A stretch of DNA of 32,000 nt, taken from Opitutia bacterium KCR 482. GTDB lineage: Bacteria > Verrucomicrobiota > Verrucomicrobiia > Opitutales > Intestinicryptomonadaceae. Each line of letters starts with the position of its first letter. Positions within the stretch are counted from its first letter, which is position 1. Positions 4,914 through 27,410 of the stretch are shown here, in pieces. The position numbers were made by a program, and so were the translations under genes. The notes beneath the pieces are model-generated. The model did no database searches. It saw only the letters and a program-made list of their open reading frames with translations, and was not told where the DNA came from. The DNA lies in assembly GCA_029269845.2 (NCBI GenBank), contig CP149973.1:480001-512000 (forward strand), written 5' to 3'.

Positions 4914-4990
4914 GGGCGATTAGCTCAGTTGGTTAGAGCGTCTGTCTTACACACAGAATGTCGCAGGTTCGAGTCCTACATCGCCCACCA
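4914..4990 (+). tRNA. tRNA-Val (anticodon UAC), CCA encoded
   Basis: Acceptor stem gggcgat (4914-4920) pairs with atcgccc (4980-4986). D-arm is tagctcagttggttaga. Anticodon stem-loop is tctgt-cttacac-acaga with TAC at 4948-4950. T-arm is gcaggttcgagtcctgc-like. Discriminator is A, followed by CCA (4988-4990). Confidence 0.93.
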
Positions 4991-12376: not shown

Positions 12377-14263
12377 CTACTCGTTTATCTGCGGCTTGTA
12401 TTCGGGAACGTACTCCAAAATAAAGCGTTTCAAATCGTTGCTGCTGCGCTTGTCGGCTGTCGCCAAAATTTCGTCGATTACCCCCTGCATTCTTTCGAAC
12501 GACGGCGGCTCGGACACGAAGCCGAATATGCGCGGGTGCTCGGTTTTGACGAGCGTCTCGTTTTTGTGCTGCAACTCTTCGTAGAGCTTTTCCCCCGAAC
12601 GCAGGCCTATGAATTCTATTTTTATGTCGACGTCGGGCTCGTAGCCGCTCAGGCGTATCATTTGCCGCGCCAAGTCTACCACTTTAACGGGTTCGCCCAT
12701 GTCGAGCACGAAAATCTCGCCGCCGACCGCCTGCGCGCCGCATTGGAGCACAAGCCCCACGGCTTCGGGAATCGTCATGAAATATCTTGTTACTTCGGGG
12801 TGGGTTACGGTGACAGGGCCGCCCTCGGCAATCTGGCGTTTGAACGTGGGAATCACGCTGCCCGACGAGCCGAGCACGTTGCCGAAGCGCACCGCCACAA
12901 ACTGCGTCTTATTGCCCGCCGAATTTTGAACCGCCTGAACCGCCTTTTCGGCGAGGCGTTTTGTTGCGCCCATCACGTTTGTGGGGTTGATTGCCTTGTC
13001 TGTCGAAATCAGCAGGAATTTTTCAACCCCGTATTTGCTTGCAATCCGCGCGATGTTCCAAGTGCCGAAAGTGTTGTTTTTCAGCGCCTCGCCCGGTTGC
13101 GACTCCATCATCGGAACGTGTTTGTGGGCGGCGGCGTGGAAAATAAGCTCCGGCTTGTAGAACGAAATTATGCGCTCCATGCGCTTTTCGTCGGCGACGC
13201 TTCCGACAAGCGGCTTGATGTTTATACCGTAGCCGCCGCGCAGAATTTTCTGCTCTACCTGAAAGAGCTGGACTTCGCAGTGGTCGAGCATAATCAGAAG
13301 CGACGGCGATTTCGACGCAATCTGCTTGCAAAGCTCGCTTCCGATACTGCCGCCCGCGCCCGTCACCATGACGACCCTGTTTTTTATCATGCCGTCAATC
13401 GCGTGCGAATCGAGGGTTATTTGCTCGCGCCCCAAGATGTCCTCGATTGCGACTTCGCGGTAGTTCGAAATTTTTGCGTAGCCCGACGCAAGTTCGAAGT
13501 ACGACGGCACAATGCTCGTTTCCACTCCCGCCTTCGAAAAATCCGCGGTGATTTCGGCGATTTTCCCTTTCGGGAGGTTCGAGATTGCGATTATCGCGCG
13601 GTCGAGCTTGTAGTGCTTCGCGAGGGTATCGAAGTTGGTCTTCAACGCAGCCACTTCCAAGCCCAGAATCTGGCAGCCTATTTTCTGCTTGTCGTCGTCC
13701 AAAAACACGACGGGGTTTATGCCCATGCGTTTGCGCGAAAGAAGGTCGGAGGCAAGCGACGTGCCCAAGTCTCCCGCGCCGATTATAGCCACGCGCTCGT
13801 GCTTTACCGCGTGCACTCTGTCGCGCATATAGCGCTCCCTGCACATGCGCAGGAAGAGCCTGAACGACGTGCAGAGAACCACCGACAGCACGAAGTCCGC
13901 AAGAATCACGCCGCGCGGGAAAATTATGCCGCTAAACGCCAGCCAATTCAGAAAAAACAGCACGGTTGAGGCAATCAGCATCGACCAGAATATGCGCACC
14001 ACGTCGGGCATATGGAAGAAGCTCAGCAGTCCCCTGAACTGTCCGAAAACCGCGAGACAGCAGATTTTAAGCGGAAGCACCAGCAGGTACAAATCGAGAA
14101 TGTTATACCTGCCGATTGAGGCGAAATTGAAGTCGAAGCGCAGCAGGAACGACACGAGCAGCGACACGAACGTAATCGCCGAATACACCAGCGACACCAG
14201 CGCGGTTCTCACGCTCACGCAACCCGAAACGAAGCCCGCAAATTTTTTTATAAATTTTTTCAT
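12377..14263 (-). CDS. Membrane-bound polysaccharide biosynthesis protein, CapD/PglF/WbpM-type NDP-sugar 4,6-dehydratase/epimerase
   Basis: Start taken at ATG 14263 (MKKFIKKFAGF..., residue 74 of track ORF 12377..14482). This avoids overlap with the ABC-F gene. Four N-terminal hydrophobic helices are followed by a Rossmann motif VTGAGGSIGSEL and SDR-type sequence (HAAAHKHVP, STDKAINPTNVMGATKR). Confidence 0.9.
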   Translation of the reverse strand: MKKFIKKFAGFVSGCVSVRTALVSLVYSAITFVSLLVSFLLRFDFNFASIGRYNILDLYLLVLPLKICCLAVFGQFRGLLSFFHMPDVVRIFWSMLIASTVLFFLNWLAFSGIIFPRGVILADFVLSVVLCTSFRLFLRMCRERYMRDRVHAVKHERVAIIGAGDLGTSLASDLLSRKRMGINPVVFLDDDKQKIGCQILGLEVAALKTNFDTLAKHYKLDRAIIAISNLPKGKIAEITADFSKAGVETSIVPSYFELASGYAKISNYREVAIEDILGREQITLDSHAIDGMIKNRVVMVTGAGGSIGSELCKQIASKSPSLLIMLDHCEVQLFQVEQKILRGGYGINIKPLVGSVADEKRMERIISFYKPELIFHAAAHKHVPMMESQPGEALKNNTFGTWNIARIASKYGVEKFLLISTDKAINPTNVMGATKRLAEKAVQAVQNSAGNKTQFVAVRFGNVLGSSGSVIPTFKRQIAEGGPVTVTHPEVTRYFMTIPEAVGLVLQCGAQAVGGEIFVLDMGEPVKVVDLARQMIRLSGYEPDVDIKIEFIGLRSGEKLYEELQHKNETLVKTEHPRIFGFVSEPPSFERMQGVIDEILATADKRSSNDLKRFILEYVPEYKPQINE

Positions 14264-14367
14264 ATACCACAACGGCGGACGCCATGCGTCGCGCGTTTTG
14301 CGCGTCCGCAATGCCGCATTTTTGCGCCCGATTCCAACGCCAATCGCGCTTTTTTGCAAGTTAATTA

Positions 14368-16302
14368 TTAAGCGTTCGCGCCCTCGGCTTCGGCGATTTT
14401 TGCGGCGGCGGACTCCCACTCGGCGTAGAGGGAGTCTATCTTTGCCTTCAACGCGTTGTAGCTTTCGGTTATCGACGAACACTGCGCGCCCTTTTTGAAG
14501 AAGTCGGGCGACGACATTTCAAGCTCTATCTGCGCCAAGTCGGACTCCGCCGACGAAATCGCCGCCTCTATTTTAGCCGCCTCCTTTTTGAGTTTGGATA
14601 CGGCTTCGCGGCGTTTCGCCGCCTCGACGCGCCGTTCTTTTGCGTCGGAAATTTTCGCGTTTTTTTTAGCCGACTGCCGCAAAACTATTTTGCCCTCGTT
14701 TTTTATCCGCTCTACGTAGTCGCTCAAATTGCCGACAAACGAGCGCAGACCGTTCGGAGAAAGCTCCAGCACCCTGTCGACCACGGGGTCGAGGAACGCC
14801 CTGTCGTGGCTGACTATAAGGTATGTTCCGCGGTAGGAGGCAAGCGCCTTTTGCAGGACGGCTTTCGAGTTCATGTCGAGGTGGTTGGTAGGCTCGTCGA
14901 GAATCAGAAAGTTGAAGTCTTTCAAAAGCATTTTCGCCAGAGCCAAGCGGTTTTTCTCGCCGCCCGACAGAATTCCGACGCCTTTGAGGACGTCGTTTCC
15001 AGAAAACAGAAACGCGCCCAAAAGGCTTCTGACCTCGCCCTTGCGCTCCATGGGGGCGGCGTTCATAGCCTCGGTCAAAACGTCGTTTGTCGGGTCAAGC
15101 TCGTCCGACTGGTGCTGGGCGAAGTACGACATCTCTACATTCAGCCCAAGCTCTACTTTGCCCGCGTCGGCCGCAAGCCCGCCCGCGATTATCTTGACGA
15201 GCGTGCTCTTGCCCGCTCCGTTTACGCCCACAAGAGCGACGCGCTCGCCGCGCTCTATTTTAAACGAAATGTTGTCGAGCACCCTGTGTTCGCCGAAAGA
15301 CTTGCACACGCCCTCGACGTCGAGCACAACCTGCCCGCAACGCTTTGGCTCCGGAAAGGCGAAACTTATCTGCGAGTTGTCCTCCTCCTCCGCCTCTATG
15401 CGCTCCACTTTGTCGAGAGCCTTTATGCGGCTTTGCACCTGCGCCGCCTTGGAGCTTTTGTACCTGAACCGCTCGATGAACCGCTCGGTCTTTTCTATCG
15501 ACTTGCGCTGGTTTTCGGCGGCGCGCGCAATTTGGTTTCGGCGCGCCTCCGACTCTTTCAGGTAGAATTCGTAGTTGCCCGCGTAGATGTCTATCCTGCC
15601 CTTGACGACGTGGAATGTGCGGTTTGTGAGCGCGTCGAGAAAAGCCCTGTCGTGGCTGACGATTATAACCGAACCCGAATAGCCGCGCAGATAGTCTTCA
15701 AGCCACGCGATTGATTCGATGTCGAGGTGGTTGGTGGGTTCGTCGAGCATGAGCAGGGTCGGCTCCTGCAAAAGGAGCTTCGCGAGGGCGATGCGCATCT
15801 GCCAGCCGCCCGAAAACTCGCAGCACGGGCGCGGCATGTCGGACATTTTGAAGCCCAAGCCCTGCAAAACCGTCTCCACGCGCGAGCGCACTTTCGACTC
15901 CTCCGCGTCTTCGAGCTTGTGGGCAATCTCGCCCATTTCCTCCACGGCGTCGGCGTATTCGCGCGAAGACGCGGCGGCAGCGGCGATTATCGAGTCTACC
16001 TCCGCCATTCTCGCGCGAAGCTCCACGACCTTCCCGAACGCCGACTCAACCTCGTCGAAAAGCGGGCGGCTGCCCACCACTATCGCGTCCTGCGGAAGAT
16101 AGCCGACCGTCGCGTACTTGGGCTTTGCGATTTCGCCCGCGTCGGGGTGCTCCAAGCCGCAGAGGATTTTCAGGAGCGTGCTCTTGCCCGCTCCGTTCGA
16201 GCCTACAAGCCCGATTCTGTCGCCCTTGTTTATGACCGCGTTTGCGCCGCCGAAAATCGTCCGCGCCCCGAATGCAAGCTCTATGTTCCGTAGTTCAATC
16301 AT
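14368..16302 (-). CDS. ABC-F family ATPase (two ABC domains, no transmembrane domain; Uup/YheS-like)
   Basis: 644 aa. Walker A occurs twice (GSNGAGKST, GVNGAGKST), as do the signatures (LSGGWQMR, LSGGEKNR). There is an inter-domain linker and a C-terminal coiled-coil tail. Confidence 0.93.
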   Translation of the reverse strand: MIELRNIELAFGARTIFGGANAVINKGDRIGLVGSNGAGKSTLLKILCGLEHPDAGEIAKPKYATVGYLPQDAIVVGSRPLFDEVESAFGKVVELRARMAEVDSIIAAAAASSREYADAVEEMGEIAHKLEDAEESKVRSRVETVLQGLGFKMSDMPRPCCEFSGGWQMRIALAKLLLQEPTLLMLDEPTNHLDIESIAWLEDYLRGYSGSVIIVSHDRAFLDALTNRTFHVVKGRIDIYAGNYEFYLKESEARRNQIARAAENQRKSIEKTERFIERFRYKSSKAAQVQSRIKALDKVERIEAEEEDNSQISFAFPEPKRCGQVVLDVEGVCKSFGEHRVLDNISFKIERGERVALVGVNGAGKSTLVKIIAGGLAADAGKVELGLNVEMSYFAQHQSDELDPTNDVLTEAMNAAPMERKGEVRSLLGAFLFSGNDVLKGVGILSGGEKNRLALAKMLLKDFNFLILDEPTNHLDMNSKAVLQKALASYRGTYLIVSHDRAFLDPVVDRVLELSPNGLRSFVGNLSDYVERIKNEGKIVLRQSAKKNAKISDAKERRVEAAKRREAVSKLKKEAAKIEAAISSAESDLAQIELEMSSPDFFKKGAQCSSITESYNALKAKIDSLYAEWESAAAKIAEAEGANA

Positions 16303-16359: not shown

Positions 16360-17397
16360 TTACAGCGACTCCGTCGAAAGGAAACGCCTGTCGACAGCCT
16401 GCGCCCCCACAATCACGCTTGTGCCGAATATCTCGTTGACCGACGCCCCGCGCGAAATTTCCGCAACGGGCTTTGTCAGCCCCGTAAGCACACGGCCGTA
16501 GCAGTTGACGGTGGAAACAACCTGCAACATGCTCGAGGCAATGTTGCCCGAATTGAGGTCGGGGAAAATCAGCACGTTCGCGCGGCCGGCAACGGAACTG
16601 TGGATCCCCTTCAAGTCGGCGACTTCGCGTTTGAGGGCGGCGTCTACTTGAAGCTCGCCGTCGATGTCTATTGCGATGTCGCAAGTCTTCGCCTTCTCGT
16701 GCGCGAGCGACGTCGCCGATTTTACCTTCAAAACCGAATGCTGTGTTGACGATGGCGTTTTCGAAGTATACGCAAGCATTGCAACGCGCGGAGTTTCGAG
16801 GGTGAGGTGGTTCACGAGAATCGCGGTCGTTATCGCGATGTCGCAGAGCTGCGGCTCTGTGGGTTCCGGAATTACGCCGCAATCGGCAAGGAAAAGGTCG
16901 CCGTTAATGCCAAGTTCGGGGTTTTCGGTGGAAACCACCATCAGCGAACTCGCCGTGCCGAAACCCTTTTGGAGCGGGATTATCTGCAAGACTGGGCGCA
17001 ACACGCCAGAGGTCGCGACGGTCGCGCCCGCAACCATGGCGTCGGCGCGTCCGGTCGCAAGCATGAGGGTTGCAAAATAGTTGGGTTGAAGCGCCATCGC
17101 ATTGATTTCCTGCGAATCGAAACTGCGGAACTTCGGCAAGCCGTGGAGGAGCTTCATGAGCGCAACGGAGTCGTCCGCCGAAACGGGGTCGATAATCTTG
17201 ATGCCGTCCAAACGGATGTCCAAAGACTTGGCGATGTCTTCAATCTTCTGCTTTTCGCCGATGATAATCGGCACGCCCAACTTGCGCGTTGCAAACTGGC
17301 GCGCAGCCTGAATTACGCGCGGGTCGGTGCCGTCGGGATAGACAATTCTCTTGGGGTGGTTCTGCAACCGTGCGGAAAGTTTTTTTACCAGTGCCAT
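16360..17397 (-). CDS. pta: Phosphate acetyltransferase (PTA_PTB family, short form)
   Basis: 345 aa. It shows ...RIVYPDGTDPRVIQAA..., ADAMVAGATVATSGVLRP, FLADCGVIPEPT, IDGELQVDAAL, VAGRANVLIFPDLNSGNI and KPVAEISRGAS. A phosphate butyryltransferase assignment cannot be fully excluded. Confidence 0.85.
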   Translation of the reverse strand: MALVKKLSARLQNHPKRIVYPDGTDPRVIQAARQFATRKLGVPIIIGEKQKIEDIAKSLDIRLDGIKIIDPVSADDSVALMKLLHGLPKFRSFDSQEINAMALQPNYFATLMLATGRADAMVAGATVATSGVLRPVLQIIPLQKGFGTASSLMVVSTENPELGINGDLFLADCGVIPEPTEPQLCDIAITTAILVNHLTLETPRVAMLAYTSKTPSSTQHSVLKVKSATSLAHEKAKTCDIAIDIDGELQVDAALKREVADLKGIHSSVAGRANVLIFPDLNSGNIASSMLQVVSTVNCYGRVLTGLTKPVAEISRGASVNEIFGTSVIVGAQAVDRRFLSTESL

Positions 17398-17424
17398 ATC
17401 TCTATAATTTACTTGTTTCCCCCC

Positions 17425-17453
17425 ATTACATCATTTTCACACAGTATAGTCAA
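17425..17453 (-). promoter_or_regulatory. Candidate sigma70-type promoter of pta
   Basis: Minus strand reads TTGACT (17448-17453), a 17-nt spacer, then TGTAAT (17425-17430). The -10 ends 27 nt upstream of the pta ATG. Confidence 0.45.
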
Positions 17454-17454
17454 G

Positions 17455-17568
17455 CCCCAAGCAGGCTGCAGCCTGCACGGCGTCGGAGCTTCGGGCGCAA
17501 GGTGCGCCTCCCTGCGGAGCTTCGCTCCTTTCTGTTATTATGCGCGGCAAGTTACTTGCCGCTTTTCT
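17455..17568 (+). ncRNA. Candidate small structured RNA (unknown family) ending in an intrinsic terminator
   Basis: There are successive hairpins on the + strand: a 16-nt perfect palindrome gcaggctgcagcctgc (17461-17476), ggcgca-agg-tgcgcc (17494-17508) and ggagc-ttc-gctcc (17516-17528). These are followed by gcggcaag-tta-cttgccgc-ttttct (17544-17568). The word ggagcttcg occurs twice. No promoter was identified, so the 5' end is a guess. Confidence 0.25.
17544..17568 (+). terminator. Plus-strand intrinsic terminator in the pta-helicase intergenic region
   Basis: 8-bp stem gcggcaag/cttgccgc, loop tta, then ttttct. The T-run exists only on the + strand, yet no + strand CDS precedes it. Confidence 0.55.
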
Positions 17569-17640
17569 CGGTTAGCCCGTATTGGCTTCGCCAATTACTG
17601 GCGTTGGGATATGCGATTATTTTTTAAGAAACTAATTTAA

Positions 17641-17736
17641 ATAGACGCGCTTTGCGCGGATAAAAAAAGTAAAAGCGAAAATCCGCAAACGCAGATTCTC
17701 CGCCTACCGACCCACCCCGCTTTTATCCCAAAACAA
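17641..17736. repeat. Structured intergenic repeat, partial/degenerate unit A0
   Basis: Hairpin ctttgcgcggat...atccgcaaac has an A-rich apical region. The tail cgcctaccgacccaccccgcttttatccca matches the tails of the other units (gaaacgccctacccaacttttatccca). Confidence 0.55.
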
Positions 17737-17894
17737 CCTAAAAATCTTTGTGCGTTAGCACTGTAATTTTAGGGGCGTTAGAGTGCCGTTCAGGCGGTGG
17801 CTTTCCCGCGATTGCGGGGTGCGTGGCGTACGCGGCTATCCGCAAACATTAGTCGGCTCGCTAAACGCCCTACCCAACTTTTATCCCAAAGCCC
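17737..17894. repeat. Structured intergenic repeat, unit A1 (subtype of B3, 3' half degenerate)
   Basis: The leader cctaaaaatctttgtgcgttagcactgtaattttaggggcgttagagtgccgttcaggcggtggctttcccgcgattgcggggtgcgtggcgtac aligns with 26655-26741. The apical loop is collapsed (gcgtacgc). The tail is ctaaacgccctacccaacttttatccc. Confidence 0.8.
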
Positions 17895-18050
17895 CCTAAA
17901 AACTTCGTGCGTTAGCACTCTAATTTTAGGGGCGTCAAAATGCCCCTATAAGAGTGGCTTTGCGAGTGGCTCAGGGTGCGTGGCGTACTGACGTACGCGA
18001 GCAGTCTGAGACACTCGTGAAACGCTCTTAGAGGGGTATTTTCACGCCCC
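17895..18050. repeat. Structured intergenic repeat, unit A2 (near-identical to B4); overlaps the helicase stop codon
   Basis: 17921-18050 matches 26808-26939 with only a handful of differences. The long hairpin spans 17943-18036 (cccctataagag ... ctcttagagggg), with an apex gcgtac-tgac-gtacgc. Confidence 0.9.
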
Positions 18051-20138
18051 GTACAGTTCGTAGGTTGAGGGGTCTATGCTTTCCAAGAAGCGGCTTGCCT
18101 GTCGCATTTCGAAATTGCCTCCCACCGCGCTTACCCTCGGGTACGAAATTATCAGCAAATCCATCGCCCGCGTCGATGCCACATAAAACAGCCTGCGCTC
18201 CTCCTCGACGTCGCCGTCGTCTATGCTGCGCTGGGTCGGGAAAAGCCCCTCCGCCGCGCCGATTACGAACACCACCGGAAACTCCAAGCCCTTTGCCTGA
18301 TGGACTGTCATCAGCCTTACGCGCCCGCCGACTTCGGACTCGCGCCCCTCGGCGTCGCTGATTTCGAGAGCCACGCTTGCGAGAAAATCGTCGAAGTCGT
18401 CGAATTTCGAGGCGTACTCGAAGAGCGCGTCGAAGTCCGCCGCGCGTTCCTCCCAGTCTTCGTAAAGGGTCTTCATGGCGTCGCGATACCAGCCGCCGCA
18501 CGCGCATTTGATGATTGCCTTGGGCGAAAAATCCGCCTCCGTCGTATTTTCGGCGGCTGGGTCGGCGGGGGCTCCGCGTTCGGACGCGTGCGCCATGTCG
18601 GCGAAAAAGTCGGTCTGGACTGGGATTTTTTCCGCGGAGTCCGCCTCGGCGTGTTTTTCGGAACGCTTTGCGAGTTCCACAAGCCCGCCGAGTTTTTCGA
18701 TGTCGGCGGCGGCGGCTTCGAACATCTGCTTTGCCGCGGCGGGGACTTTTGCGAGCACCTTTTTGTCGGAGAGAACGCGCCACTCCGGAAGCGATTTCGA
18801 CGCGGCGACTTCGCGGATTTTTTCGAAAATCTTGAACGCGGTTTTGTCGCCGATTTTCGGCATGAAGCGGCAGAAGCGCAGGAACGAAACGTTGTCCTTG
18901 GGGTTTGCGACGAATTTTATCTGCGAAACGATGTCCTTGACGTGCGCCTGTTCGAAAAATTTTACGCCGCTTGTCATCACGAACGGAATTTTTGCGTATT
19001 GGAGCTGCAACTGCAAGTCCATCGCCTGAAAGTGCGAGCGGTAGAGAACGGCGATGTCGTCGTACCCGTAGCGTCCGCCCGACTCTATCTCGGCGATTGC
19101 CCGCGCCACGTTCCGCCCCTGCGACGCGCCGTCCATTGCGGGCATTACGCGCGGCTTGAAGTTGCCGTCGCGGGCGGGAACGAGCGTTTTTTTGAACTCC
19201 TCGTCGTCAAGCTCCATGCCGTCGAGTATTTTGTTTGCAAAGTTCAGAATCTGCGGCGAGCTGCGGTAGTTGCGCTCTATCTTGTAGATGTAGGCGGCGG
19301 GATAGCGTTCGCGGAAGCGGAGAATGTTGTCGATTTCCGCGCCGCGCCAAGAGTAGATGCACTGGGCGTCGTCGCCGACCGCGCTTATGTTCCCGCGAGA
19401 GGCAAGCAGGTCGAGAATGTCGGACTGCAACTTGTTCGTATCCTGAAATTCATCGACGAGAATGTTCCCGAACCTGTCGGAATATTTTTTCAGAATGTCG
19501 GGGTTTTCGGAAAGCAGTTTGAGCCAGAGTTCGAGAAGGTCGTCGAAGTCGCAGTTGTTTGCGGCGCGTTTTTCCGCCTCGTAGGCGCGGGCTATTTCGG
19601 CGATTTGCGACGCCGGCGTTTCAATCCAGTCGAACCTGTACGCCATGGCGGTCTGGATTGTGGAGCGCGTGTTTCGCGCGTAGCTTATGATTTCGCGCAA
19701 AAGTTTTGAGCGCGGGTTGTCCTTGTTCGAAAAGAAATGCGGGTACGACTCCTCTACCGCCTTTTTTATCACTTTGTCCGAATCCTCGGTGTCCAAAATC
19801 CCGAAGTTGGGTTCAAGCCCGAGAGCGCCGCCTTCGATGCGCAAAAACCTGTTGCCTATCGAGTGGAACGTGCCGCCCCAGAACGAACGCGCGGGATAGC
19901 CCGCCAGCGACTCTATCCGCGCGAGCATTTGGTTTGCCGCCTTGTTCGTGAACGTGAGCAGAAGAATGTCGCGCGGGCGGAATCCGCATTCGGAAATTAG
20001 CCACGCCACGCGGTATGTTAGCGTGCGCGTCTTCCCCGACCCCGCCCCCGCGAGCACGAGCGCGGGACGGTCGGGCGGCGAAGTCACGGCGGCGTACTGG
20101 TCGGAATTGAGTTCGGCGTTGAAGTCGATTTTTTCCAC
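18042..20138 (-). CDS. UvrD/PcrA/Rep-family ATP-dependent DNA helicase (SF1)
   Basis: 698 aa with a GTG start at 20138 (gtggaaaaaatcgac...). Motifs are LNSDQYAAV, Walker A AGAGSGKTRT, DEFQDTN, VGDDAQCIYSWRGA, YRS and TVHQAKGLEF. The stop TGA (18042-18044) lies inside repeat unit A2. Confidence 0.93.
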   Translation of the reverse strand: MEKIDFNAELNSDQYAAVTSPPDRPALVLAGAGSGKTRTLTYRVAWLISECGFRPRDILLLTFTNKAANQMLARIESLAGYPARSFWGGTFHSIGNRFLRIEGGALGLEPNFGILDTEDSDKVIKKAVEESYPHFFSNKDNPRSKLLREIISYARNTRSTIQTAMAYRFDWIETPASQIAEIARAYEAEKRAANNCDFDDLLELWLKLLSENPDILKKYSDRFGNILVDEFQDTNKLQSDILDLLASRGNISAVGDDAQCIYSWRGAEIDNILRFRERYPAAYIYKIERNYRSSPQILNFANKILDGMELDDEEFKKTLVPARDGNFKPRVMPAMDGASQGRNVARAIAEIESGGRYGYDDIAVLYRSHFQAMDLQLQLQYAKIPFVMTSGVKFFEQAHVKDIVSQIKFVANPKDNVSFLRFCRFMPKIGDKTAFKIFEKIREVAASKSLPEWRVLSDKKVLAKVPAAAKQMFEAAAADIEKLGGLVELAKRSEKHAEADSAEKIPVQTDFFADMAHASERGAPADPAAENTTEADFSPKAIIKCACGGWYRDAMKTLYEDWEERAADFDALFEYASKFDDFDDFLASVALEISDAEGRESEVGGRVRLMTVHQAKGLEFPVVFVIGAAEGLFPTQRSIDDGDVEEERRLFYVASTRAMDLLIISYPRVSAVGGNFEMRQASRFLESIDPSTYELYGA

Positions 20139-25919: not shown

Positions 25920-26216
25920 CTACGCGTCGTCCACAACTTTGGGAACTACTATCTGGTTGTCGCGCTTGGCGGGTGCGTTCATGAGCGCGTCCTCCACGCT
26001 CATAGCCTCGCCCTCTACGTCGTCGCGCCACACGTTGTATATCGCGTGCGCGTGCGCGCTCGGCTCGACGTTCGATACGTCGATTTCCGAAAGCTTCTTG
26101 AAATATCCCAGTATCTGACCCAACTGCTTCGAATACATCTCCTTCTCGGCCTCCGTCAATTCTATACGCGCAAGCCGCGCCACATATTCGATGTCTATTT
26201 CTCCTGTATTTGCCAT
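25920..26216 (-). CDS. gatC: Asp-tRNA(Asn)/Glu-tRNA(Gln) amidotransferase subunit C
   Basis: 98 aa. IEYVARLARIELTEAEKEMYSKQLGQILGYFKKLSEIDV is the typical GatC helix-loop pattern. It is the first gene of gatCAB. Confidence 0.9.
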   Translation of the reverse strand: MANTGEIDIEYVARLARIELTEAEKEMYSKQLGQILGYFKKLSEIDVSNVEPSAHAHAIYNVWRDDVEGEAMSVEDALMNAPAKRDNQIVVPKVVDDA

Positions 26217-26296
26217 ATCTCTATAATCTCACAAATCTATCGAACGGAGACAAGAAAAATTGACACACGCCACGAGGAAAATTCAGAAGCAGAAAT

Positions 26297-26454
26297 CTAA
26301 AAAACTTCGTGCGTAAGCACTCTAATTTTAGGCGCGTTAGAGTGCCAGTATAAGGGCGGCTTTACGCGCGGCACAGGGCGCGTAGCATACTTGGCGTATG
26401 TAAGCGGTCTGGGACGCGCGCGAAACGCCCTACTACACTTTTATCAAAGAACAA
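26297..26454. repeat. Structured intergenic repeat, unit B1
   Basis: Leader ctaaaaaacttcgtgcgtaagcactctaattttaggcgcgttagagtgcc. Hairpin agtataagggcggctttacgcgcggcacag...ctgggacgcgcgcgaaacgccctactacact with an apex gcatac-ttggc-gtatgt. Tail is cttttatc. Confidence 0.85.
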
Positions 26455-26648
26455 CCTAAAAATCTTCGCGCCGTGCGCTCTAATTTTAGGGGCGTCAAAG
26501 TGCCAGTATAAGGGCGGCTTTACGCGCGACACAGGGCGCGTAGCATACTTGGCGTATGTAAGCGGTCTGGGACGCGCGCGAAACGCCCTTAGACTGGTGC
26601 TTTCACGCGCCGTGCGAAACGCCCTACCCAACTTTTATCCCAGCGCAA
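26455..26648. repeat. Structured intergenic repeat, unit B2 (near-identical hairpin to B1, plus a ~40-nt extra segment)
   Basis: 26499-26587 is nearly identical to 26341-26430. An extra segment ttagactggtgctttcacgcgccgtgcgaaacgccc (26589-26624) duplicates the gaaacgccc tail. The leader hairpin is gcgc-cgt-gcgc instead of gtgc-gtaa-gcac. Confidence 0.85.
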
Positions 26649-26807
26649 CTTAAAATCTTCCGCGCCGTGCGCTGACTTTTTAGGCGCGTCAAAGTGCCGT
26701 TCAGGCGGTGGCTTTCACGCGATTGCGGGGTGCGTGGCGTACTGGCGTACGCGAGCAGTCCGCAAGCGCGGGGAAACGCCGCATCAACGGTGCTTTGACG
26801 CGCCGTG
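26649..26807. repeat. Structured intergenic repeat, unit B3
   Basis: Hairpin 26694-26793 is gtgccgttcaggcggtggctttcacgcgattgcgg...ccgcaagcgcggggaaacgccgcatcaacggtgc, with an apex gcgtac-tggc-gtacgc. Confidence 0.85.
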
Positions 26808-26940
26808 TAATTTTAGGGGCGTCAAAATGCCCCTATAAGAGTGGCTTTGCGAGTGGCTCAGGGTGCGTGGCGTACTAAACGTACGCGAGCAGTCTGAGAC
26901 ACTCGCGAAACGCTCTTAGAGGGGCGTTTTCACGCCCCTA
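26808..26940. repeat. Structured intergenic repeat, unit B4 (near-identical to A2); overlaps the 3' end of the GNAT gene
   Basis: The hairpin spans 26830-26924. Flanking 20-mers aggggcgtcaaaatgcccct (26815-26834) and aggggcgttttcacgcccct (26920-26939) are inverted repeats matching at 18 of 20 positions. Confidence 0.9.
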
Positions 26941-27410
26941 CCGTAGAAGATGGAAGATTCTCCGGGGGAATAATAGTCGGATATTTCCGCTTCTTTCACA
27001 AAGCCCAGTTTTTCGTAGAATTTTCTTGTCGGCAAATACTGTTCCCTGCCCGACGTCTGCAACAGCAGCTTTGTTGCGCCGCGCTCAGCAACGTCGGCCA
27101 AGATTGCCTCGACAAGCCGCCGCCCTATTCCGTGCCCGCGAACCGTATTGTCAACCGCAATCCAGTCGAGATAGTAGAGCGATTCGCAGCATGCCTCGCG
27201 CTCGTACGACGCAAACCCGACCACCCTGCCGTCAAGCTCCGCGAATATGAAAATTTCGCCGCTTCCGTCGATTGCCCCGCGCAGCTCCTCTTCGGCGCAG
27301 TCGTACTCGTCGAAAACCCTGTCGAAAAAACCGCTCGATTTCATGATTTCGCGCACGCGCGGAATGTCGGCAAGCGTCGGCGTCCGCCTGATTGCAAGCT
27401 CACTTTTCAT
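26916..27410 (-). CDS. GNAT family N-acetyltransferase
   Basis: 164 aa. The acetyl-CoA motif VRGHGIGRRLVEAI and an FY..LGF motif are present. The ATG (27408-27410) overlaps the last codons of the upstream ATP-grasp gene by 11 nt. The last 8 codons lie in repeat unit B4. Confidence 0.88.
   Translation of the reverse strand: MKSELAIRRTPTLADIPRVREIMKSSGFFDRVFDEYDCAEEELRGAIDGSGEIFIFAELDGRVVGFASYEREACCESLYYLDWIAVDNTVRGHGIGRRLVEAILADVAERGATKLLLQTSGREQYLPTRKFYEKLGFVKEAEISDYYSPGESSIFYGRGVKTPL

Follow-up and report, generated by a model that had tools for sequence, protein, structure and literature searches.

The window analysed here, a stretch of 32,000 nucleotides, holds two arrays of repeats about 8.8 kb apart, termed locus A and locus B, and both end with the same ordered pair of unit subtypes (b, then a) beside the stop codon of a minus-strand gene, which raises the question of how two loci came to share this arrangement. 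The initial annotation had offered block duplication, gene conversion or targeted insertion. Comparison across the genome and with related strains and species confirmed that locus A belongs to the same repeat family at an unrelated locus, and that the shared subtype order is an ordinary outcome of a dispersed, recombining repeat family; A resembles B because the a subtype is homogeneous family-wide and because blocks are exchanged between loci. The repeat is a lineage-specific, previously undescribed mosaic intergenic family of the REP/BIME/ERIC type, an unusual form of a familiar kind of element.

Locus A is a cassette of about 592 nt (17460-18052) in which a multi-hairpin module, a terminator-like module, a linker, a truncated unit, a second linker and a full hairpin follow one another. 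It and its neighbours comprise the following features:

16360-17397, minus strand: pta, downstream of locus A, which sits upstream of this gene
17425-17453, minus strand: probable pta promoter (TTGACT-N17-TGTAAT), native sequence immediately outside the cassette, as read from the sequence
17460-17640, plus strand: U module, a series of small hairpins that covary (GGAGCTTCGCTCC, GCGGCAAGTTACTTGCCGC, ATTGGCTTCGCCAAT) forming the left part of the cassette
17641-17705, minus strand: T module, two hairpins each followed by a T-run in the mRNA sense
17706-17771, plus strand: linker L1, ACTTTTATCCC...CTAAAAATCTT, a small covarying stem-loop and TAATTTTA, which recurs before most hairpin units
17772-17872, plus strand: A1, a truncated b-type unit (nhmmer match to model positions 1-101)
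17873-17928, plus strand: linker L2, between the A1 tail and A2
17929-18052, plus strand: A2, a full a-type imperfect palindrome of 122 nt with the conserved GT
18042-18044, minus strand: helicase stop codon TGA, inside the A2 hairpin arm
18042-20138, minus strand: UvrD-type helicase gene, its stop adjoining locus A

The repeat block reaches farther left than the initial annotation had placed it, to about 17460, and 25 genomic copies align with the U module stretch, two of whose hairpins are terminator-like on the plus strand. The segment 17641-17705, formerly read as a partial hairpin unit ('A0'), is instead a separate terminator-like module present at about 25 loci; its terminator-like matches lie on the minus strand at 17700-17677 and 17658-17646, and it is probably the terminator of the helicase transcript. 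A1 has a 5' arm (17772-17831) that passes at the apex (GTGGCGTAC|GCGG) directly into a T-like tail (17832-17872), and it lacks a 3' arm; it folds weakly (z = -1.5), and units truncated in this way occur at about 17 further places in the genome. The last two codons of the helicase (Gly-Ala) and its TGA stop come from the 3' arm of A2, and the helicase of other species ends in ...Y* without Gly-Ala. The TTGACT box, directly 3' of the helicase stop at empty sites in other species, is kept there, and 17425-17453 probably serves as the pta promoter, although a consensus promoter scan does not list it.

Locus B is built from hairpin units without a U or T module:

25920-26216, minus strand: gatC, with locus B upstream of it
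26297-26940, plus strand: locus B, four units
26331-26433: B1, d-type unit without its outer 3' arm
26489-26611: B2, full d-type unit
26683-26804: B3, full b-type unit
26816-26938: B4, full a-type unit
26916-27410, minus strand: GNAT acetyltransferase gene, its stop adjoining locus B (TAA, 26916-26918, inside B4)

The GNAT protein carries seven element-encoded residues, RGVKTPL, at its C-terminus. Both arrays adjoin the stop of a minus-strand gene and lie upstream of the next minus-strand gene (pta and gatC), as had been observed, and the full units A2 and B4 both fold as rods of about 122 nt (-83 and -90 kcal/mol with RNA parameters, z = -12 and -14).

Genome-wide the family numbers 74 units at 37 loci, 47 of the 74 being full hairpins. 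An imperfect palindrome of 122 nt forms the core; its arms fall into four subtypes, across which they covary, and it holds two variable boxes, outer (types a-d) and inner (types A-D), which are found in mixed pairings including the hybrids aC, bA, cB and dA. Identical mismatches (C.C), wobble pairs and asymmetric internal loops are present in all subtypes, and for that reason fold-back copying of one arm from the other was rejected as the source of the covariation. Each locus has one to four hairpin units, all in one orientation in every array and separated by linkers of 10-60 nt with no ORFs between; the module order U-T-L-H (H being the hairpin) is constant at about 25 loci. Truncations cluster at the apex, hairpins have one constant end (...CCGT), to the right of which the adjoining module is truncated at differing points, and at 723098 and 1626779 hairpin units are nested inside other units.

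Within the genus the family is patchy, with many copies in 8 of 24 genomes and none of the repeat in 13 non-carriers, and both species and strains differ in whether a locus has the repeat. Three empty sites, in species G007 and G010 and on metagenome contig L041, have no repeat and 8-20 nt between the helicase stop and the pta -35 box, and the helicase-pta gap in other species of the genus is 77-170 nt. The cassette was therefore gained in the ancestor of the species, between the helicase's last sense codon and the promoter of pta, and about 10-13 nt (stop codon plus spacer) were replaced in the filled locus relative to the empty sites. Metagenome assemblies found by exact-protein look-ups supplied the conspecific gut strains (scanning metagenomes with the C-terminus of the helicase yielded matches of at most 74% identity, all from other species), and among these strains there are three alleles at locus A (gaps of 280-645 nt) and at least eight at locus B (gaps of 214-699 nt), in flanking DNA that is 97-99.5% identical. 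Strains differ at one and the same locus in subtype order and in the number and type of units, and despite this turnover every strain of the species keeps ELYGA* as the end of the helicase.

Two of the locus B alleles record how the arrays change. In strain L178 locus B holds a truncated-b/linker/full-a block which is 92% identical to the locus A block of this genome over 336 aligned columns, about 99% identical from the b arm to the a apex and 100% identical over about 160 nt (tail, linker and a-type 5' arm), while the best other copy of the 106-nt tail and linker in this genome is only 87% identical; blocks therefore move between A and B, in partial support of the initial annotation. Strains L176 and L180 have at locus B a single hairpin made of the B3 5' arm joined to the B4 loop and 3' arm, the product of a deletion between the two apex 15-mers.

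The position of the repeats is strongly constrained. The positional preference suspected from the two loci proved to be a family-wide rule, with 35 of 37 loci abutting the stop codon of an opposite-strand gene (gene strand was settled by a frame-by-frame check), and in 16 of 35 terminal units the stop triplet ends 0-2 nt before a conserved AC|GGSGCG. The hairpin ends in a conserved ...CGCSCCGT, the GT following 26-29 of the 35 terminal hairpins. With origin and terminus placed from GC skew and gene-strand bias alone (dnaA lies at the assembly start and not at the skew minimum, and so is uninformative as an origin marker), 36 of 37 loci follow the replichores, whereas only 55.6% of genes are on the leading strand (binomial p about 1e-6). 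Species G003 repeats the pattern in 21 of 23 copies, and gene polarity holds even for the three copies that go against replichore polarity.

The folding of the repeat is likewise asymmetric. On the strand opposite the mRNA the paired columns contain 249 G.U and 13 A.C cells; G.U is an alternative state in about nine polymorphic columns, and A.C is found in no column in more than one copy. This G.U excess indicates that the fold is optimised on the antisense strand, which is the leading-strand template. The plus-strand RNA fold is 11-12 kcal/mol more stable than that of its complement, and with DNA parameters the leading-strand template has the better fold by 9-10 kcal/mol. Mutational bias was rejected as the source of the G.T excess, as deamination of the exposed strand (the lagging-strand template, non-transcribed) would be expected to give the opposite asymmetry.

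Taken together, a mosaic repeat family with recombination and block exchange, a role as a 3'-end module and a polarity based on survival make up the probable explanation. The cassettes at A, B and elsewhere were later remodelled by unequal recombination or slippage and by exchange of blocks between loci. The recombination or slippage takes place between conserved boxes (the apex 15-mer, GGCTTT/GAAACGC and the outer stem) and yields truncated, half and hybrid units as well as altered copy numbers; the exchange of blocks between loci resembles gene conversion. The helicase mRNA would carry a very stable stem-loop at its stop codon followed by a terminator, so that the cassette may act as a portable 3'-end module for message protection, transcription end or insulation. 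The restriction to the leading strand may most simply reflect the orientation in which a long palindrome survives replication; in sedentary integrons, likewise, it is the leading-strand template that carries the folding strand of attC, an arrangement that stabilises the arrays (PMC5371416). Against this explanation, a role at the level of mRNA does not predict a fold optimised on the strand opposite the mRNA, and homologous recombination covers the turnover of alleles but neither the arrival of a cassette at a naive site nor the exactness of the junctions.

Targeted insertion, as raised in the initial annotation, may have played a part: the positional preference that it calls for exists, but neither an enzyme nor a target-site duplication was found. 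A six-frame search with PF01797 (Y1/RAYT transposase) came up empty in all 24 genomes of the genus, this one included, but it did score in 6 genomes used as controls and in 9 further genera of the order. There was also no match to the PF00078 reverse transcriptase in the same 24 genomes, and the best match in the genus to the integron integrase model TIGR02249 reached about 74 bits against a cut-off of 265, representing generic Xer-type recombinases only. Among the 74 units no pair of arms was seen to bracket a gene, as the ends of a full-length parent insertion sequence would, the enzyme families covered being Y1, reverse transcriptase and integron integrase, and comparison of the filled locus A with the empty sites of G007, G010 and L041 revealed no target-site duplication. 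A RAYT/REPIN model was rejected for want of a Y1 transposase in the genus, and an integron-like model for want of IntI. A model of reverse-transcribed copying, in which cDNA of a 3' UTR anneals to the lagging-strand template, would have explained the restriction to leading-strand genes and was rejected as there is no RVT_1 reverse transcriptase in the genus.

A mobile element that is active and guided by structure, whose enzyme would recognise the folded plus strand and install or swap hairpins at stop codons in step with the replication fork, much as in the peel-and-paste of IS200/IS605 or in attC recombination, would account for the exact junction with its GT and abutting stop triplets, the fixed end beside variably cut modules, the nested units, the mismatches and wobbles kept on one strand only, the replichore polarity in two species, the patchiness in the genus and the turnover of alleles behind a constant helicase C-terminus. 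However, the enzymes named above are missing (the integrase in the sense of an above-cut-off match), locus A arose by replacement of nucleotides and not by a clean insertion with target-site duplication, and the active strand of IS200/IS605 is the lagging-strand template (PMC5027513), while the well-folding strand here is the leading-strand template. The three replichore-breaking copies that follow gene polarity also tell against it, and we consider such an element unlikely.

A process as yet undescribed, replication-polar and acting on one strand, which installs and swaps hairpins exactly at the stops of genes transcribed with replication, could do without a RAYT, a reverse transcriptase and an integron integrase, and its folded strand would be the leading-strand template, with the sequence of the nascent lagging strand; we regard this as quite improbable.

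Simple duplication within the genome, by which A1-A2 and B3-B4 would be copies of one two-unit block, was suggested by the likeness of the loci, much of which was borne out. A2 (17929-18050) and B4 (26816-26938) differ in pairwise alignment (17921-18050 against 26808-26940) at 5 positions, exactly those that had been named (loop tgac/taaac, t18018/c26906 and ta18037-38/cg26925-26), and the 5' arms of A1 (17772-17831) and B3 (26683-26742) differ at 4 of 60 positions. Duplication of such a block would also fit the b-then-a ends found at 19955, 1279374 and 1288108 and the presence of the A block at locus B in L178. The common order of b then a thus stands, but the junctions are built differently, A1-A2 being a truncated unit, a tail and a 56-nt linker, and B3-B4 a full hairpin and 11 nt. 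The distance between A2 and B4 is that of the family in general, eight full a-type copies differing pairwise by a mean of 4.9 positions (range 2-7), and the closest copies to A2 are at 19955 and 1279531, while the closest 5' arms to those of A1 and B3 are at 561924 and 1925068 respectively. The b-then-a order is seen at 4 of 31 junctions genome-wide, which is not a significant enrichment (permutation p = 0.10), and all orders occur. The claim that A and B are copies of one ordered block in this genome is not upheld by these comparisons, and simple duplication is very unlikely.

A structured antisense RNA, a plus-strand transcript of linker and hairpin (about 160 nt for each unit) that would run antisense to the 3' end or 3' UTR of the gene it abuts, would accord with the G.U excess and the greater stability of the plus-strand fold, but G.T wobbles stabilise DNA hairpins too and the asymmetry needs no RNA. 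A scan of both strands of 17300-18150 revealed no sigma-70-like promoter, conservation among copies does not extend to the putative -10 region of the linker, and no plus-strand terminator follows the hairpin. Rfam gave no match at the gathering threshold, and a permissive scan (E up to 5) gave chance-level matches only, besides a tRNA elsewhere in the window. The units are multi-copy and strain-variable, and truncated, half and hybrid forms are tolerated, unlike a gene under purifying selection, so that an RNA gene of this kind is very doubtful. An assembly artefact, whether a collapsed or a chimeric repeat, is extremely improbable, for although some short-read contigs break off within the repeat (L170-L172 begin 114-180 nt ahead of pta), independent metagenome assemblies from other samples span both loci with the same architecture and with unique flanks on both sides (L164 and L168 match locus A at 99.0-99.1% over 7 kb, and L181 matches locus B with 30 mismatches and no gaps over 6.3 kb).

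Comparison with known repeat systems supports the placing of the family among mosaic intergenic repeats. Many REP/BIME elements lie close to stop codons; ERIC elements occur in both orientations relative to genes and are not known to be anchored at stop codons or replication-polar; and the BOX elements of Streptococcus pneumoniae, boxA-(boxB)n-boxC, vary in the copy number of the internal module by locus and by strain. The family shares with BOX a modular architecture with an internal module of variable copy number, but its modules and sequence are other, and BOX is not known to be stop-codon-anchored or replichore-polar. Like the REP/BIME elements of Enterobacteria and Pseudomonas (PMC3333891, PMC2817692), it consists of extragenic palindromic units forming mosaics with a small set of linkers, in strain-variable copy number and arrangement, and is located in 3' untranslated regions and between convergent genes. 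It differs from them in that its hairpin is 122 nt long (REP 20-40 nt), its units run head-to-tail in one orientation where BIME units alternate, there is no terminal GTAG tag (CGTC is internal), no RAYT gene is found anywhere in the genus, and gene and replichore polarity are strict. The REPINs of Pseudomonas fluorescens (PMC3116915) resemble it as imperfect hairpin units of about 100 nt that form within-genome families with compensatory-looking changes in the arms, but a REPIN is two inverted REPs mobilised by a resident RAYT, whereas the arms here do not consist of two REPs, and linker and terminator modules as well as stop codons are bound up with the unit.

With ERIC/IRU of Enterobacteriaceae and Yersinia (127-bp; PMC2229807) the family shares near-equal size, as an imperfect palindrome of about 125 nt that is intergenic, probably transcribed and multi-copy without a transposase, and ERIC/IRU too has internal deletions and insertions at fixed points and lies in transcribed intergenic regions; the likeness is one of kind only, no similarity or homology of sequence being claimed, and ERIC is not known to form tandem arrays of subtypes. 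The CGTC-tagged REPs (Rickettsia RPEs and Neisseria dRS3) are a palindromic family apparently without a dedicated transposase (PMC3733652), and the outer stem here contains CGTC (GGSGCGTCAAAG), but theirs have stems of 8-9 bp, loops of 4-5 nt, an unpaired CGTC tag at the end and a CCA tail, while CGTC here is inside a 55-bp rod, and the resemblance is probably due to chance. [quoted passage not shown] IS200/IS605 and their hairpin-ended miniature derivatives (PMC5027513, PMC6006769) have hairpin ends, make no target duplication, insert beside a short specific sequence and have an orientation tied to replication, but that family needs a Y1 TnpA, absent here, and its active strand is the opposite one.

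We found no joint description in the literature of this combination of properties, namely a 122-nt rod that supplies or abuts the stop of a host gene, a near-exclusive link in two species to genes co-oriented with replication, pairing optimised opposite the mRNA, no recognisable mobilising enzyme and rapid turnover of alleles among human-gut strains. The arrays make good markers for telling apart strains of an uncultured gut Opitutales species; they also break short-read assemblies and alter the C-termini of proteins, adding Gly-Ala to the helicase and RGVKTPL to the GNAT protein. Should a mechanism rather than survival underlie the polarity, this would suggest a novel way in which DNA is rearranged at replication forks, and, were the undescribed process true, bacteria or a selfish element would be exchanging ready-made gene-end modules composed of three-frame stops and a terminator.

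Alignment of window positions 17700-18060 with 26600-26950, together with a profile of the hairpin, showed that the same repeat family does occur at two unrelated loci, A and B.

Features of the window
17460-18052, locus A, cassette between a UvrD-type helicase gene and pta (both minus strand)
17460-17640, U module, left of T, conserved and built of small covarying hairpins
17641-17705, T module, a pair of hairpins flagged as terminator-like, both with a T-run after them in the helicase-mRNA sense
17772-17872, unit A1, a hairpin without its 3' arm
17929-18052, unit A2, hairpin
26297-26940, locus B (units B1-B4), between a GNAT acetyltransferase gene and gatC (both minus strand), without U or T
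26261-26289, plus strand, between gatC and the B array, perfect TTGACA hexamer with TCAGAA 17 nt on
4914-4987, plus strand, tRNA gene, the window's sole Rfam match at the gathering threshold (69.9 bits)
12377-14482 (minus) and 12536-13969 (plus), long overlapping open frames on opposite strands; the codon-usage score favours the shorter plus frame, and the true gene is ambiguous

A2 and B4 were almost base-for-base copies, as the initial annotation had it, differing only in the loop (tgac/taaac), at 18018/26906 (t/c) and at 18037-38/26925-26 (ta/cg), and the 5' arms of A1 and B3 agreed at all but four positions. Both A2 and B4 folded into rods of ~122 nt (-83 and -90 kcal/mol; z = -12 and -14 versus shuffled sequence). 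What had been taken for a further partial unit at 17641-17705 is the separate T module, although the impression of partial homology was fair, as T shares ATCCGCAAAC with the tails of truncated units. The order and orientation U, T, linker, hairpin were constant at ~25 loci, so the repeated block at A covers ~592 nt rather than the 2.5 units first described. Outside the window, at C1:1287700-1287815, a tRNA-like sequence (gggcgtagctcagcgg...ggttcgagtcc) lies directly ahead of a U module; the site has a tandem pair of U modules.

The hairpin profile (nhmmer) found 74 units at 37 loci of the 2.30-Mb genome, 47 of them full length, falling into four main arm subtypes set apart by paired changes.

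Arm subtypes of the hairpin
a, CCCCTATAAGAG
b, CGTTCAGGCGG
c, TTTCATAAGGG
d, CAGTATAAGGG

Between the variable parts lie invariant boxes: GGCTTT/GAAACGC, an outer stem, GGSGCGTCAAAG, that contains a C.C mismatch, and GCGTGGCGTAC at the apex. Outer and inner variable boxes are found in new combinations, seen as the hybrids aC, bA, cB and dA (capitals for inner-box types). Truncation at the apex is frequent and leaves either a 5' arm joined to a tail or a 3' half. A divergent sub-family (GGCTTGTCAAG... / GGCGCGTCAAAACGGG...; C1:1116216, 1118935, 1286201 and 1557346) retains the GGCTTT/GAAACGC boxes and the apex.

Within this genome the likeness of A to B is not special. The eight full a-type copies differ pairwise at 2-7 positions (mean 4.9), and A2 and B4 differ at 5; the copies nearest to A2 are at 19955 and 1279531, and the nearest 5' arms are at 561924 for A1 and 1925068 for B3. 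The architectural twin of locus A, at 1279234-1279652, shares its U-T-L-bX-L-aF layout (letters as in the allele list below), but identity is only 81%, owing to other variants of the linkers and the tail. Every subtype order was present among the 21 multi-unit arrays, with b then a at 4 of 31 junctions (permutation p = 0.10), and the sole, weak trend was for b to lie farthest from the stop codon (9/21 arrays, p = 0.04). The junctions also bear on the reading of the likeness, since just 11 nt separate the complete hairpin B3 from B4, whereas A1 passes at its apex (GTGGCGTAC/GCGG) into a different tail, a 56-nt linker and then A2. The shared b-then-a order in this genome is thus no evidence for the duplicated ordered block that had been proposed from it.

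Contigs from other strains were collected by exact-protein look-ups of Pta and GatC, and their flanks were 97-99.5% identical to the window. They carried three alleles at locus A and at least eight at locus B; these contigs also excluded a collapsed or chimeric assembly at the two loci.

Strain alleles (L, linker; F, full; I, without outer 3' arm; X, apex-truncated; numbered L, strain contigs)
A: U-T-L-bX-L-aF, this genome, L164, L168
A: different U and T, then L-cF, L163, L167
A: partial T-L-aF, L165, L166, L169-L171
B: dI-dF-bF-aF, this genome, L181
B: dF-bF-aF, L173
B: dX-bF-aF, L177
B: bX-L-aF, L178
B: bX-L-cF, L175
B: single hybrid hairpin, L176, L180
B: alleles with a dF end, L174, L179, L182

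The L178 allele of locus B matched the A block of this genome in 309 of 336 aligned columns (92%), the differences lying mostly in the first linker; between the b arm and the a apex identity was ~99%, with one mismatch, and the ~160 nt of tail, linker and a-type 5' arm matched exactly. Elsewhere in this genome the best match to the 106-nt tail and linker of the A block was 87%. A block must therefore have moved, in one direction or the other, between the two loci in this species, so that exchange of a block, as first suggested, does occur. The L176/L180 hairpin consists of the B3 5' arm joined to the B4 loop and 3' arm, a deletion between identical apex 15-mers 133 nt apart and a direct case of unequal recombination. 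Its 5' arm is b-type and its 3' arm a-type, leaving the variable boxes unpaired, and this 'broken' rod at the GNAT stop codon is tolerated in at least two strains. The TTGACA site beside the B array is kept in every strain allele; it may represent a weak promoter directed into the array on the best-folding strand.

All three A alleles keep the helicase end ELYGA*, and the second and third carry a 7-nt remnant of an older hairpin and then a new unit with TAA or TAG. A 12-nt junction, CCGT-TAA-GCCCCGT (the end of one hairpin and the final 7 nt of another, with a stop triplet between them), is common to locus A of L163/L167 and to C1:900720-900735; these loci are unrelated and their hairpins differ in subtype, and the host protein ends in Gly-Ala in both.

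Presence and absence of the repeat also varied between species. Helicase and pta are adjacent in two other genomes (G007, G010) and a metagenome contig (L041), where the gaps of 77-170 nt contained no repeat; the helicase there ends in Tyr (...Y-stop), and 8-20 nt on comes the TTGACT box of the probable pta promoter. In a further genome (G016) the helicase has an ordinary terminator and another gene as its neighbour. Here the cassette fills the interval from the last Tyr codon to ~6 nt short of the same TTGACT, neither the native stop nor the spacer is left, and the helicase now ends Gly-Ala-stop, read from the hairpin arm (GGG GCG TGA). Comparison of this filled site with the three empty sites showed no target-site duplication.

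The preference for gene ends, anticipated from the two loci, proved to be a strict rule when all genomic copies were surveyed: at 35 of 37 loci an opposite-strand open frame (of at least 100 codons) had its end within a span from 23 nt inside the terminal hairpin to 40 nt past it. Of 35 terminal units, 26-29 have GT directly after the hairpin, and in 16 the stop triplet ends 0-2 nt ahead of AC/GGSGCG in the mRNA sense, while about ten genes rely on the TGA within the hairpin arm; that arm offers stops in all three frames, located at its edge and in the GCGTGA and CTCTAA motifs.

Units lie on the minus strand at 0.02-0.14 and 1.54-2.13 Mb and on the plus strand at 0.30-1.29 Mb with one exception, zones that are exactly the two GC-skew replichores (minimum near 1.33 Mb, maximum near 0.17 Mb; origin and terminus inferred solely from skew and gene bias), and therefore almost all host genes are co-oriented with replication, compared to 55.6% of genes overall (p ~1e-6). 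The exception, 1118935, belongs to the divergent sub-family and sits after a lagging-strand gene. In a second species (G003, contig C1) 21 of 23 copies conformed, with minus copies at 161-660 kb and plus copies at 814-1766 kb, and sampled GC skew flipped sign near 740 kb in the same sense. The three exceptions, two in G003 and one here, still abut an opposite-strand stop codon. Every copy checked thus obeys gene polarity; for replication the polarity is a strong bias. The dnaA gene (C1:373-855), at the assembly start, is ~170 kb from the skew maximum and ~1 Mb from the minimum, so it is probably not adjacent to the origin in this organism. Two of the 20-kb samples from G003 (C1:290001-310000 and 950001-970000) had G+C of 0.40 and 0.48, compared to ~0.58 elsewhere, and are probably acquired islands.

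On the plus strand of the window, the paired columns (44 consensus pairs, 46 copies) held 249 G.U cells versus 13 A.C cells; G.U was the alternative state in about nine polymorphic columns, and A.C occurred in no column beyond one copy. The plus-strand hairpin was more stable than its complement by 9-10 kcal/mol (DNA parameters) or 11-13 (RNA parameters). The better-folding strand serves as leading-strand template and runs antisense to the host gene. This preference argues against optimisation in the mRNA; it agrees with an antisense RNA, with DNA in single-stranded form or with selection on strand placement, whereby the weaker hairpin would be held on the exposed lagging-strand template. In sedentary integrons the attC folding strand lies on the leading-strand template, stabilising the arrays (PMC5371416).

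Six-frame searches found no Y1/RAYT transposase, RVT_1 reverse transcriptase or integron integrase above the cut-off in this genome or the 23 others of the genus, and did score in control genomes or other genera. On the tests made the element does not qualify as a REP/REPIN or an integron, and at the one filled site compared it lacked the target-site duplication of a MITE. Among the 24 genomes of the genus a hairpin covariance model found many copies in 8, single copies in two and none in 13, and outside it only two weak matches, both in one genome (G030). The element is best classed with the REP/BIME/ERIC-type mosaic repeats, as a new variant that is unusually long and polar, and in function we infer it to be a 3'-end module.
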